A stretch of DNA of 64,000 bases from IMG/VR virus record IMGVR_UViG_2880395615_000008. One strand, given 5' to 3'. Below are positions 34,601 through 40,600 of the stretch, one piece after another. The DNA is from a virus (lineage: Duplodnaviria > Heunggongvirae > Uroviricota > Caudoviricetes). Made by a program: the position numbers. The number at the start of each line of letters is the position of its first letter. Within the stretch, counting starts at the first letter, position 1.

Positions 34601-37600
34601 TTGAAAGCGAGGTTTTTACAAACAAGATCCAGTATCCGGATGGTAAGCCGCCAGTGTGGGCAAAGTGCACAAAAGGCGTGTATCCGTCTTACTGGGAGGA
34701 ATGGAAAAAAGTCAGGGAGGTGGTAAAAGTTGCCTGTCCGGAGTGTGGCGGAAAGGGTGAGGTTTCCACCGCCTGTAAGGATTGCCGTGGGCGTGGTGTC
34801 GCCATTCATCGTGAAGAGTCGGTAAAACGTGGTATGCCTGTTATCAGAGACTGCCAGCGTTGTGGTGGTCGTGGCTGTGAAAGACTACCATCAACGGAGG
34901 CATTTAATGCCATATGTAATGTAACCGATGCCATATCTCTTGATACATGGAAAAAAACAGTTAAACGTTTTTACGATACGCTGGTGGTGCAGTTTGATAT
35001 TGAAGAAGCATGGGCAGAACAACAACTGAAAAAGGTGACCAGATAGCTTTGTTGATTTTTCCCGAATCTGTGGTAAATTTGCCCTAACGATGGGCGTTTT
35101 ATGCCTGACGTTAGAAGATTTTTTACACCCCGCCGCATGGCGGGTTTTTTATGACTGAAATCGCGTCAGTACAGTAAACGCGCTGGTGGCGGTGAATACC
35201 GGTCTTTCAGCTTGCTGGCTTTTTTGACAAGAGTTATTGGTGTGTCACGTTAACCGAAAAAGGGAAAAAGACATGCTGAAACAGCAGGATATGACAGAAA
35301 CCGCCAGAGCAGTGTTTAATGAATTAAGCGTCACCGAACCGGCGACAGTCGGGGAGATTGCGCAGAATACTTACCTTTCACGCGAACGCTGCCAGTTAAT
35401 ACTGACCCAGCTTGTTATGGCGGGTCTGGCAGACTATCAGTTCGGTTGTTACAGACGCCTTCAGTCCTGAAGGCTTTTTTATTTGTGGTAAATGGGCGGC
35501 TGGTGGGTGTTAGGGGCACTCACCAGCCATCTGCTCATGCGTCTGGATCACAAGCAAACCTCAGGCCCACTGCTTTGCGCAAAAGCAGAATGAGCCTATC
35601 AGAGACAGGCTTAATGATCCATGTTTAACACTGTAAAAATATCCAGTTGTGAGTTGATCAACGCTGACTGCCTGGAATTTATCCGGTCGTTACCCGAAAA
35701 TTCTGTTGACCTGATAGTCACGGACCCGCCGTACTTTAAAGTGAAGCCTGAGGGCTGGGATAACCAGTGGAAGGGCGACGATGATTACCTGAAGTGGCTG
35801 GACCAGTGTCTGGCGCAGTTCTGGCGGGTGCTGAAACCTGCCGGAAGTCTTTACCTGTTCTGTGGCCATCGCCTGGCATCTGACATTGAAATCATGATGC
35901 GTGAACGCTTCAGTGTGCTGAACCATATTATCTGGGCGAAGCCGTCCGGACGCTGGAACGGGTGCAACAAGGAAAGCCTGAGGGCGTATTTCCCCGCCAC
36001 AGAGCGCATTCTGTTCGCGGAACATTATCAGGGGCCGTATCGTCCGAAAGATGCCGGGTATGAGGCGAAGGGCAGGGCACTGAAACAGCATGTGATGGCT
36101 CCGCTGATTTCTTACTTTCGTGATGCGCGTGCTGCTCTGGGGATAACGGCAAAACAGATAGTGGATGCCACAGGAAAGAAAAACATGGTGTCGCACTGGT
36201 TCAGTGCCAGTCAGTGGCAGCTACCGAACGAAAGCGATTATCTGAAATTACAGGCGCTGTTTGCCCGGGTGGCAGAAGAGAAGCATCAGCGGGGTGAACT
36301 GGAGAAGCCCCACCACCAGCTGCTGGAGACGTATACTTCACTGAACCGGCAGTATGCGGAACTACAGAGTGAATATAAGCATCTGCGGCGGTATTTTGGC
36401 GTGACGGCGCAGGTGCCGTACACGGATGTGTGGACGCATAAACCGGTGCAGTACTATCCCGGGAAACATCCGTGCGAAAAACCGGCAGAAATGCTGCAGC
36501 AGATAATCAGTGCGAGCAGTCGTCCGGGTGACCTGGTTGCAGATTTCTTCATGGGGTCGGGTTCGACAGTCAAAGCCGCGATGGCGCTGGGGCGTCGTGC
36601 AACTGGCGTTGAGCTGGAGACTGAACGTTTTGAGCAGACGGTCAGGGAAGTACAGGATTTAGTCAGTCAGAACGGATGATATTGCAGAATTAACCGGGTA
36701 TCAGGTACGCCCCGAAAATTTTAAATGTCTCACAATTCAGACGGTTGACAGTTGTCTGGTTTGCGGGGAGTTTGTTAAAAGAAACTGGCATGGTGAATCC
36801 CCCTGAGCGGAGGGGCATATCAGCGCAGGTGTTTCTACTCTATCCTTTCTGTGCGGGTTCAGGTGCTGATACTGAACTCACCGGGAGGCACCCGGCACCA
36901 TGCATATGGTTAACAGACACGTAGCGAAGCCCCTCTCCGGAGGGGCTTTTTTTATGGGCAAAAAAAGCCCGCGCTGGGAGACGCGGGCGGCAAGGAATAA
37001 ACAACAAAACGTGAAGTAATATTTCAGCTGGCGAATAATACCCCATGGTAATCACTCTGCGCAACTGCGCGGCCTTTTTCGAATTGCGGGCTGTAAGTCT
37101 CCCTTCTGCCATTGTCCTGTAACTTCCGGACTTCAGCCCGCTCTTTATCTGATTCAGTACACTATCCCGGCCGGGAGGATTCATGACATTTAAACATTAC
37201 GATGTGGTCAGGGCGGCATCGCCGTCAGACCTTGCTGATGCACTTGCGCAAAAAATTCGTGAAGGATGGCAACCATACGGTGGGCCGTTTTCTTCGTATA
37301 CGGATGATGGCGCAGCACTTATTCAGGCGATTGTCGCAGAAGGTGATGTGAGCACACCTGTTGTGGTGAAGCCGACAGGTGGAGAAGGTGCAGTAATCAG
37401 TGCCACCAGCGACCCGGAGTATTACTTTGTTGTGGTTCTGGCGGGGCAGTCAAACAGCATGGCATATGGTGAAGGCCTTCCGCTGCCGGAGACATATGAC
37501 CGTCCGGACCCGCGTATTAAGCAGCTGGCGCGCCGCAGTACGGTGACACCGGGCGGTGTCGCCTGTAAATATAACGACATCATTCCGGCGGACCATTGTC

Positions 37601-40600
37601 TGCATGATGTGCAGGACATGAGCCGCCTTAACCATCCGAAAGCGGACCTGTCAAAGGGGCAGTACGGAACCGTGGGGCAGGGGCTGCATATCGCCAAAAA
37701 ATTGCTGCCGTTTATACCGGCGAATGCGGGCATTCTGCTGGTTCCGTGCTGTCGTGGTGGTTCAGCGTTCACCACCGGAGCCGATGGCACATACAGTGAC
37801 GCGAGTGGTGCCTCGGAGAATTCAACCCGCTGGGGTGTGGACAAGCCGCTGTATAAGGACCTTATCGGTCGAACAAAAGCAGCACTGAAGAAGAATCCGA
37901 AAAATGTGCTGTTTGCCGTGGTGTGGATGCAGGGGGAATTTGATTTTGGCGGTACGCCGGTAAATCACGCCGCACAGTTTGGTGCGCTGGTTGATAAATT
38001 CCGTGCAGACCTGGCGGATATGGCAGGCCAGTGCGTCGGTGGCTCTGCTGGCGGTGTTCCCTGGATATGCGGGGACACGACGTATTTCTGGAAGCAGAAG
38101 AACGAATCCACGTACCAGACGGTGTATGGCAGCTATAAAAACAAAACGGAAAAGAATATCCATTTCGTACCGTTCATGACCGATGAGAACGGGGTGAATG
38201 TGCCGACGAACAAACCGGAAGAAGACCCGGACATTCCGGGTATCGGATATTACGGTTCGAAATGGCGTGACAGCTCAGCCACCTGGACGTCACAGGACAG
38301 GGCGAGCCATTTCAGCGCCTGGGCACGCCGTGGGATTATTTCCGACCGTCTGGCAACGGCGATTTTGCGCCATGCGGGAAGAGTGGCGCTAAACGCGGGG
38401 GCATCATCGACAGTATCAGAGGTGCGCCCGTCATCGCCTTCCGGTGCAGAAGCCACAGGCGTCACAACACTGCTCTCTTACCTTGCCAGCGAGTCAGAGG
38501 GAAGCCTGAAAGTACAGGGATGGTCAGCCAGTGGCGGCAGGGCAGAAGTGGTCAGCGATGCGGAGGGAACCGGAGGTAAGGCAGTGAAGCTGACCAAGGA
38601 AGCCGGTAAAAGCAGCTGGGTGCTGGAGTACGCCGCGGGCAACGGTGCGGCTCTGTTACAGAAAGGGGGGCAGATTCGCTGCCGCTTTAAGGTTTCGGGA
38701 GCGCTGGCTGCGAACCAGTATGTTATGGCGTTTTACTGGCCGGTATCTTCACTGCCACAGGGCGTTGCCCTGACCGGAGACGGGGGGAATAACCTGCTGG
38801 CAGCGTTCTACATCCAGACAGATGCAAAAGACCTGAATGTGATGTACCACAATGCGAAAGTGGCGACAAACAACCTGAAACTGGGAACCTTTGGCGCATT
38901 TGATAACGAATGGCATACGCTGGCTTTCCGCTTTGCCGGGAATAACAGCCTTCAGGTGACGCCGGCTATTGATGGTCAGGATGGCACACCGTTCACGCTG
39001 ACGCAGTCACCGGTCAGTGCATTTGCGGCGGATAAACTGCATGTGACAGACATTACCAGGAATGCGACTTACCCGGTACTGATAGACAGCATTGCGGTGG
39101 AAGTGAACAGCACAGACACTGCGGCATGATAAAAAAAACCGCCAGCGACAGGAATGGACGCTGGCGGTGGTAATACCTATGGAGAAAAAATAAAGGAACG
39201 ATACTTTCGTGCTCTGGTTTTTTAAATGAAAACAGTTCTTATTGTCAACAATAACGGAAAGAAATTATGACATTTCTAAACCAGTTAATGCTGTACTTCT
39301 GTACGGTGGTCTGTGTGCTGTATCTCCTTTCGGGTGGGTACAGGGCCATGCGTGACTTCTGGCGCAGACAGATTGACAAAAGGGCCGCTGAGAAAATCAG
39401 CGCCAGTCAGTCAGCCGGAAGCAAACCCGAAGAGCCGCTCATTTAGCGGCAACTTTCTTAATCACATCTTTCGACGAGAAAATCCCATGTCAGAAATTAC
39501 ATCCCTGGTCACTGCTGAGGCAGTGAAGGAAGTCCTGCGCTCTGAAGAAGTCCGGAGTGCACTGAAACAGAAACTCCGCCAGAATCTTGAGTCGCGTCTT
39601 GATGCAGAAGTGGATGCTATTCTGGATGAACTGCTGGGCGCACCGGCAGTTCCTGAGCCGGAAGGTATCGCGGGTGAGGGGAGTGCTTCAGATGGCGGTG
39701 AACCCACACCTGACAGCGACATGATGATGTAAGCATGCGCAAGGGGCCATCGGTGTGTGCCGGTGGTCTTTATATTGTTGTGAGCTTCCGGATTGCGGGA
39801 GACGGGGTATGTACCAGATGGAAAAAATCACAACAGGTGTGTCATACACCACGTCAGCGGTGGGAACGGGCTACTGGTTCCTGCAGTTGCTGGACAGGGT
39901 TTCCCCGTCTCAGTGGGCGGCAATAGGCGTGCTGGGGAGTCTGCTGTTTGGGCTGCTGACATATCTGACGAACCTGTATTTCAAGATTAAAGAAGACCGG
40001 CGTAAGGCGGCACGGGGAGAGTAAGCTGATGAGCAGGAAACTCCGCTATGGTTTATCGGCTGCCGTTCTGGCGCTGATTGCCGCAGGTGCTTCTGCGCCT
40101 GAAATCCTCGACCAGTTTCTGGATGAAAAGGAAGGTAACCACACCACGGCATACCGTGATGGTACGGGTATCTGGACCATCTGCCGCGGTGCCATCCTGG
40201 TGGATGGTAAACCTGTCGTCCCGGGCATGAAGTTGTCGAAGGAAAAATGCGACCAGGTTAACGCCATTGAGCGTGATAAGGCGCTGGCATGGGTGGAGAA
40301 AAACATCAAAGTGCCGCTGACCGAACCCCAGAAAGCGGGGATCGCGTCATTCTGTCCGTACAACATTGGTCCCGGTAAGTGTTTCCCGTCGACGTTTTAC
40401 AGACGAATTAATGCAGGTGATCGAAAAGGTGCCTGCGAAGCTATTCGCTGGTGGATTAAGGACGGTGGCAGAGACTGCCGTATTCGTTCAAACAACTGTT
40501 ACGGTCAGGTATCCCGTCGTGACCAGGAGAGCGCGCTGGCGTGCTGGGGAATCGACAGATAAGCAGAATATTTTGCTGAAAAATGAGGTTTGCTTACATG

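Follow-up and report, generated by a model that had tools for sequence, protein, structure and literature searches.

A lambdoid prophage late region with an apparently empty tRNA-stx slot between a DNA methylase gene and nanS-p

Introduction

What fills the toxin position of a prophage whose late region resembles that of a Shiga toxin (Stx) phage, but which has no toxin genes? The question is raised by a 64,000-nucleotide stretch of Caudoviricetes DNA (IMG/VR record IMGVR_UViG_2880395615_000008; the whole stretch is called the window below), in which the interval 35046-39129, between the antiterminator gene Q and the lysis cassette, holds a DNA methyltransferase (methylase) gene and a gene for a 648-aa esterase. 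Stx-converting phages have stxA and stxB among their late genes, downstream of Q, and the tRNA genes ileZ/Met-argN-argO upstream of stx are common but not universal among them. An earlier interpretation made without database searches, here called the sequence-only reading, placed the methylase and the esterase in the toxin slot. The comparisons reported here lead to another answer: the interval is very probably the Q-dependent late accessory module of an stx-negative lambdoid prophage with an empty tRNA-stx slot, of a kind carried in multiple copies by enterohaemorrhagic (EHEC) and Shiga toxin-producing (STEC) Escherichia coli.

Searches for toxin and tRNA genes

Stx2A and Stx2B from an Stx2a phage were used as tblastn queries (E<=10) against the whole window, with nothing better than E=0.44, and stx2AB DNA gave no blastn match in the window. 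A 2.5-kb slot segment of the Stx2a phage Stx2_EH1910 (LC567834), comprising three tRNA genes, stx2AB and iraM, was also searched by blastn at word size 7. Its only real match was a stretch resembling the small RNA (sRNA) STnc100, the sensitive search otherwise giving chance-level matches of 22-24 nt. By tblastn and blastn over the whole window, stxA and stxB are thus absent downstream of Q. ARAGORN called 0 tRNA genes across the whole 64-kb window, Rfam gave no tRNA at gathering score over the window and none at E<=1 in 34900-39800, and blastn with the tRNA block likewise revealed none of the tRNA genes of Stx phages.

The sequence-only reading had described an Stx-phage-like late region with neither stx nor tRNA genes and had proposed formal searches for both. 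That description is upheld by the tblastn searches with Stx2A and Stx2B, by blastn, and by ARAGORN and Rfam. The open reading frame (ORF) coordinates in that reading were also accurate, as the terminator, the small ORF, the methyltransferase at 35621-36679 and the 648-aa gene at 37183-39129 are all where it had put them.

Layout of the late region and its constant flanks

The main elements from Q to the esterase gene are as follows.

34225-35046, plus strand: Q-type late-gene antiterminator, 273 aa (PF03589 Antiterm, 7.6e-50, 167.4 bits against a cut-off of 26.7)
35052-35079, plus strand: candidate PR'-type late promoter, TTGATT, 16-nt spacer, TG-n-TAAATT (inferred, sequence reading only)
35129-35150, plus strand: tR'-like intrinsic terminator, CCCGCCGCATGGCGGG followed by T7 (terminator scan and sequence)
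35273-35470, plus strand: 65-aa late-region ORF, conserved, a 198-nt coding sequence (CDS), function unassigned (RefSeq CDS in NZ_AP026099; phrog_331, 1.7e-37)
35457-35480, plus strand: second terminator-like hairpin, at the end of the 65-aa ORF (terminator scan)
35621-36679, plus strand: beta-class N6-adenine DNA methyltransferase of the M.EcoGI/M.EcoGII family, 352 aa (PF01555 over its full length, 5.6e-44)
36680-36729, no strand: the actual toxin/tRNA slot, empty (pairwise blastn, junction read-out, three-way alignment)
36730-36750, plus strand: conserved box TCACAATTCAG-N5-TTGACA, kept in all phages compared and preceding the sRNA
36759-36959, plus strand: STnc100-family sRNA gene (Rfam RF02076, 148.1 bits against a gathering score of 47)
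37183-39129, plus strand: NanS-p, prophage sialate 9-O-acetylesterase, 648 aa, with DUF1737, SASA and DUF6645 domains (Pfam)

The first of these genes is a phage Q by its Antiterm domain, which scores above the Pfam cut-off, and by its place directly upstream of a terminator. This terminator, a GC-rich hairpin with a T-run, lies 83 bp past the Q stop codon; in lambdoid phages tR' sits at such a place after Q, and the candidate promoter between the Q stop and the terminator fits the lambdoid PR'/tR' organisation. The candidate promoter scores 8/12, which falls under the threshold of the promoter scan, and is missing from the scan output for that reason. The Q protein is identical to quuQ of Stx2_EH1910 at 270 of 273 residues, and a 273-aa Q type has been described in an Stx2 prophage (PMC10462455). 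The 65-aa ORF also lies between Q and the methylase in annotated Stx2 phage records, and its product shows a weak TrmB-like winged helix-turn-helix match (E=0.002) under the Pfam cut-off. Taken with the genes further downstream, the region has the lambdoid late layout of Q, PR'/tR', accessory genes, holin, endolysin and Rz, and is colinear with Stx2 phages.

When 34225-40562 was compared by megablast with 50,697 phage records, 382 of them were matched, mostly Stx1- and Stx2-converting phages. In LC567834, the gene order is rusA, Q, a 198-nt ORF, a 1059-nt methylase, tRNA-Met, tRNA-Arg, tRNA-Arg, stx2A, stx2B, iraM (minus strand), yjhS (nanS-p), two small ORFs, holin and endolysin. In the Stx2a phage Stx2a_WGPS2 (NC_049941), the order is identical starting at the small ORF and methylase, where the module in common with the window begins, except that iraM is missing. 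With the sRNA placed, the Stx2 phage order becomes methylase, three tRNA genes, stx2AB, STnc100, (iraM), nanS-p and lysis genes.

The window follows this order closely. As in Stx2_EH1910, Q (99% amino acid identity), the 65-aa ORF, the 352-aa methylase, the STnc100-family sRNA and NanS-p (91% amino acid identity) succeed one another, and DUF1378, DUF826, holin, lysozyme, Ant and Rz come in the same order as well. Unlike the Stx2a phages, the window lacks the three tRNA genes, stx2A and stx2B (and the iraM of EH1910), and its STnc100 copy is only 73% identical. At the DNA level, identity to LC567834 is 97% over a stretch that starts upstream of Q and reaches 13 bp beyond the methylase stop; it then picks up again at 73% over 226 bp, starting 42 bp after stx2B in LC567834, and runs at about 92% from the nanS-p start onward. 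Since the methylase and nanS-p co-occur with stx in Stx2 phages, they are constant flanks of the toxin cassette and not its replacement, the variable insert being stx with the tRNA genes.

The same layout, with a three-domain NanS-p upstream of the lysis cassette and no stx, is found in the stx-negative NanS-p lambdoid prophages of EHEC (EDL933 and O104:H4 alleles; PMC8065619). Saile et al. described multiple nanS-p alleles in EDL933 and O104:H4 in 2016 and 2018, as reviewed in PMC8065619. The prophage in the window appears to be one of these stx-negative EHEC prophages, and no difference from them was found.

An unoccupied site between methylase and sRNA

The first 13 bp after the methylase stop (36680-36692, TATTGCAGAATTA) are common to Stx2 phages. 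They are followed by a 37-bp non-coding spacer, 36693-36729, which is the true slot and which ends at the conserved box. Between the same two boundaries, LC567834 holds about 1.65 kb, made up of three tRNA genes and stx2AB. The spacer aligns over its full length with PhiR12_1, a phage that has neither stx nor the methylase, and its ends align with the sequences flanking the three-tRNA insert of phi296, which has the tRNA genes without stx. These two alignments therefore define a single site in three states: it is empty, holds tRNA genes only, or holds tRNA genes with stx. All three states are bounded by TATTGCAGRATTA to the left and TCACAATTCAG-TTGACA/STnc100 to the right. As judged from the alignments, the spacer is not junk from a deletion, and the locus is an 'empty-site' allele, not one in which other cargo has replaced the toxin.

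The tRNA-only, stx-less phages (vB_EcoP_phi296, TL-2011a and PPwrbA_EH2201) resemble the window in having the methylase 3' end on the left and TCACAATTCAG, STnc100 and nanS-p on the right. They keep three tRNA genes and only a 33-aa methylase remnant, whereas the window has a full methylase and no tRNA gene. Tentatively, and at less than even chance, the window could retain an unoccupied acceptor site into which a tRNA block and then stxAB were inserted as Stx2 late regions assembled. If that were true, comparison of the three states across thousands of genomes could reconstruct the stepwise origin of the stx locus.

A 114-aa minus-strand ORF at 36840-37184 was considered as a gene and rejected, as it crosses the STnc100 gene and two terminators and is not annotated in RefSeq. 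LC567834 has iraM on the minus strand at the corresponding place, and the iraM-containing slot segment of LC567834 gave no blastn match around 36840-37184.

Distribution of the empty junction

To count genomes with this arrangement, a 96-bp junction query was used, which consists only of the methylase end, the spacer and the conserved box. The exact empty junction was found in 96 of 5,426 complete E. coli genomes, in one piece and once per genome, with O157:H7 and further EHEC-type strains among them. All 4,084 bp of the interval are present in one piece at 98.9-100% identity in 25/25 genomes among the matches listed, with serotypes O157:H7, O103:H2 (including strain 12009), O121 and O45:H2. 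A figure of 256 genomes at >=80% coverage was discarded as a count of stx-less loci; that search joins pieces up to about 2.5 kb apart, so loci bearing stx or tRNA genes could enter it, and the junction query was used in its place.

The flanking methylase and NanS-p

The methylase has DPPY at residues 35-38 and FMGSG at residues 310-314, the motif order of M.EcoGII-type enzymes, in which an N-terminal DPPY and a central target recognition domain precede a C-terminal FxGxG motif for S-adenosylmethionine (PMC5778455). It is identical at 349 of 352 residues to the methylase of phage 1720a-02, which Murray et al. describe as very similar to M.EcoGII (PMC5778455). At least 327 of 349 residues are identical to the M.EcoGII sequence in the supplement of the SUPREM paper (PMC11551740), a figure that can only be a minimum, since the supplement text was read by machine. 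Like M.EcoGII and M.EcoGI, which come from prophages of E. coli O104:H4 C227-11 (PMC5778455), the window enzyme is prophage-borne, about 350 aa long and of the DPPY ... FxGxG order. It differs from M.EcoGII by about 20 substitutions, concentrated in residues 235-275, and by a C-terminus that is 3 aa longer. M.EcoGII methylates adenine in any context, is toxic if constitutively expressed and is silent in the lysogen (PMC5778455). Methylases of 352 aa have been reported downstream of Q in Stx2a phages (PMC10462455).

The esterase gene encodes all three domains of NanS-p, with E-values of 1.5e-11 for the capsid-binding DUF1737, 4.7e-11 for the SASA esterase domain and 9.5e-74 for DUF6645, which is C-terminal and lectin-like. 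Residues 426-643 are identical at 216 of 218 positions to PDB 6YP6, the crystallised C-terminal domain of NanS-p, and the esterase core (residues 74-396) matches chromosomal NanS, 3PT5, at 3e-116 and, in a separate comparison, at 6e-117. In the 3PT5 alignment, the AGQSN serine and the SHFS histidine are both kept. Rangarajan et al. reportedly assigned, in 2011, the roles of the NanS Ser-His pair to the GQSN serine and a C-terminal histidine. The sequence-only reading had called this protein esterase-like and had listed nanS-p among the genes of Stx phages at this place; by domain content and the near identity to 6YP6 the 648-aa protein is NanS-p itself.

EHEC genomes have several nanS-p alleles each, all of them prophage-borne and encoding active Neu5,9Ac2 esterases (PMC8065619), and active alleles occur in both Stx and non-Stx prophages (PMC8065619, PMC10462455). 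Downstream of stx2a, nanS-p was present in every phage surveyed, and it is also found in non-Stx prophages (PMC10462455). A 2026 cryo-electron microscopy study reported that the phi24B homologue of NanS-p, gp84, is a capsid decoration protein bound via DUF1737 (bioRxiv 10.64898/2026.04.10.717836).

The window protein is 91% identical over its full length to yjhS/nanS-p of Stx2_EH1910, and it is a mosaic. Its DUF1737 domain and linker (37183-37480, residues 1-100) are diverged from the Stx2_EH1910 allele and contain a 14-aa insertion, and residues ~170-648 are almost identical to it. The diverged N-terminus could reflect adaptation of the capsid-binding domain to another capsid type.

The STnc100-family sRNA and neighbouring RNA signals

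The sRNA gene that adjoins the slot, which the sequence-only reading did not mention, belongs to the STnc100 family. Its covariance match is full length (model positions 1-206), a strong terminator was called at 36926-36955, and its fold beats all 200 shuffles (z = -3.4). Both Stx2 phage records compared carry the family 75 nt downstream of stx2B, at 153.8 bits. This agrees with the published position of STnc100, 75 nt downstream of the stx2 operon (PMC12370729). The 11-nt complementarity to stxB proposed for STnc100 (PMC12370729) is without a cis target here because stxB is absent. STnc100 overlaps the Hfq-binding sRNA EcOnc27/sRNA103, which was detected experimentally in Sakai and EDL933 downstream of stx2B (PMC12711010). 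According to a 2026 preprint, it is related to PasD, and the order PasD/STnc100, sialic acid esterase, PasA/C and holin-lysozyme occurs in many prophages of enteropathogenic E. coli (EPEC) and EHEC, mostly not beside stx (bioRxiv 10.64898/2026.05.13.724894).

The window element thus resembles STnc100/EcOnc27 (sRNA103)/PasD in its full-length model match and in its position directly upstream of a sialate esterase gene. In Stx2 phages, the esterase is accompanied by an STnc100-family sRNA directly downstream of stx2B, and the window copy differs at its 5' end from that of the closest Stx2a phages.

Two minus-strand signals were noted nearby.

36960-36988, minus strand: convergent terminator-like hairpin of 8 pairs (7 GC) followed by T7, back-to-back with the STnc100 terminator (terminator scan)
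39131-39207, minus strand: Esr41-like sRNA candidate, sub-threshold (Rfam RF02676, 30.9 bits against a gathering score of 102, E=0.005)

A weak OmrA-B-like Rfam match (36960-37048, minus strand, 26 bits) lies under its gathering score, and the region 36960-37048 is 82-88% conserved in several stx-free and Stx phages. The minus-strand terminator and the OmrA-B-like match together suggest a short transcript antisense to the nanS-p leader. The Esr41-like candidate aligns over the full length 1-74, retains UUUUCUCCAU, and its terminator is GC-rich with a T8 run, the terminator scan calling a terminator-like site at 39151-39139. It lies directly after the nanS-p stop, in the esterase-holin gap where the Pas-sRNA preprint puts PasA/PasC.

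Proposed expression of the module

Gene identities, gene order, terminators and the absence of the cassette were established directly, and a course of expression can be proposed from lambdoid biology. The PR'-type promoter after Q would give a short transcript ending at tR' (35129-35150) as long as RNA polymerase has not been modified by Q. Once the prophage is induced, polymerase modified by Q would pass both terminators and transcribe the module from the small ORF and methylase, through the sRNA region and nanS-p, into the lysis and morphogenesis genes. The methylase would be silent in the lysogen, and would be expected to methylate adenines broadly in replicating phage DNA, by which progeny may escape restriction. 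NanS-p, freed at lysis and possibly virion-borne, would strip 9-O-acetyl groups from mucin sialic acids. The STnc100-family sRNA has a conserved box upstream and a terminator of its own, and is probably an Hfq-binding regulator that is expressed separately.

Alternative explanations

The proposal of the sequence-only reading, that the methyltransferase and the esterase are alternative cargo (morons) at the stx position, draws on the fact that both genes lie between Q and holin, the interval of stx in Stx phages. However, both co-occur with stx2AB and tRNA genes in many Stx2 phages, one upstream and the other downstream of the toxin, and what stands in place of the cassette is 37 bp of non-coding DNA. 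LC567834 and NC_049941, in which the two genes flank stx2AB, already refute the proposal, and we consider it hardly credible. Of that interpretation, the Stx-phage-like region without stx or tRNA genes stands, but the two genes as slot occupants do not, the slot being the 37-bp spacer. A more serious alternative, though still an unlikely one, is that a former Stx-converting phage lost its tRNA-stx cassette, either through deletion or through recombination with a relative free of stx, which would make the empty slot secondary. The block of Q, small ORF and methylase is 97% identical to a current Stx2a phage (Q at 270/273), intermediate tRNA-only, stx-less phages exist (phi296, TL-2011a and PPwrbA records), and for esterase-sRNA-holin loci Zhu et al. 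mention repeated loss of stx among the possibilities. Yet the junction is not ragged, and phages free of both stx and the methylase have sequence colinear with its 37-bp spacer. Divergence from the closest Stx phage is also far greater in the downstream block (73% identity over STnc100) than in the upstream one, so the window sequence cannot be obtained from that phage by a simple deletion; a recent deletion from the closest Stx2a phage was rejected as a simple explanation on this ground and because the spacer is common to stx-free phages. Finally, this junction is fixed across 96 genomes, and several serotypes are represented among the 4-kb matches in one piece.

Several points weigh against our own account, in which the interval is the late accessory module of an stx-negative prophage with an empty slot. 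The STnc100 gene and the 5' part of nanS-p are only 73-92% identical to Stx2a phages that share the Q-methylase part at 97%, and this unevenness makes the locus a mosaic. The site may never have been occupied, or it may have been emptied by recombination. The specificity of the methylase is inferred from about 94% identity to a machine-read supplement sequence of M.EcoGII, and capsid decoration was demonstrated for the podovirus phi24B, while this prophage has lambda-like tail genes. The PR' promoter comes from reading the sequence and was not called by the consensus scan, and the expression of the locus is likewise a prediction.

Implications

The arrangement is an ordinary and well-populated one, and all of its components and its layout are already in the literature; it matters little beyond correct annotation. 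A late region of Q, methylase and nanS-p is by itself no evidence of a toxin phage or of cargo replacement. Q and the late modules are near-identical in stx-negative siblings and Stx2a phages, which are therefore ready recombination partners, and such siblings confound short-read assembly and stx-phage typing in STEC genomics. The empty-site allele could serve as a reference for studying gain or loss of the stx cassette.

Genomic surroundings

Downstream of nanS-p, the late accessory genes and lysis cassette span 39267-42023 on the plus strand, with all assignments below from ORFs, Pfam, PHROGs and the annotation of homologous loci.

39267-39446, plus strand: DUF1378 gene
39487-39732, plus strand: DUF826-like gene
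39755-40024, plus strand: class II holin ORF
40029-40562, plus strand: lysozyme
40833-41402, plus strand: Ant-like protein
41556-42023 and 41776-41961, plus strand: Rz/Rz1

The window is colinear with E. coli 61_150228 (NZ_AP026099) only over 18920-40023, at 99.8%. In NZ_AP026099, the best-matching genome, the prophage begins with an integrase that borders an ompW fragment, which places the prophage at ompW. Upstream of 18920 and in the lysis cassette the two sequences part, the usual mosaicism of lambdoid phages. Over 40024-41553, NZ_AP026099 has two extra ORFs between holin and lysozyme, and in the window the lysozyme comes directly after the holin, with the Ant-like gene (40833-41402) ahead of Rz.

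The first 19 kb of the window (1-19900) belong to a second, adjacent prophage, of which they comprise the tail end and the effector cargo; the features are as follows.

Within 1-19900: tail ORFs of tape-measure and J size
9353-10399, minus strand: IS3-type transposase
10412-10534, minus strand: isrC sRNA (Rfam, 150 bits)
10696-11223: Lom
11282-12601: tail fibre
14847-15587, minus strand: truncated integrase
16004-16924: OspG/NleH-like kinase
16990-17559: NleF

The tail modules of the two prophages (L, K, I, J and tail fibre) are 90-95% identical in DNA and in direct orientation (3508-9343 against 54966-60800, and 11137-12939 against 61309-63110). These common modules are potential substrates for inter-prophage recombination.

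Three further features lie elsewhere in the window.

24511-24562, minus strand: DicF sRNA (75 bits), adjoining dicB in the early-left region
31676-31850, plus strand: sok antitoxin RNA (112 bits), with hokD, upstream of the DUF968/RusA/Q block
63497-64000: IS1 transposase ORF, running off the right end of the window (PF03400, 2e-71)

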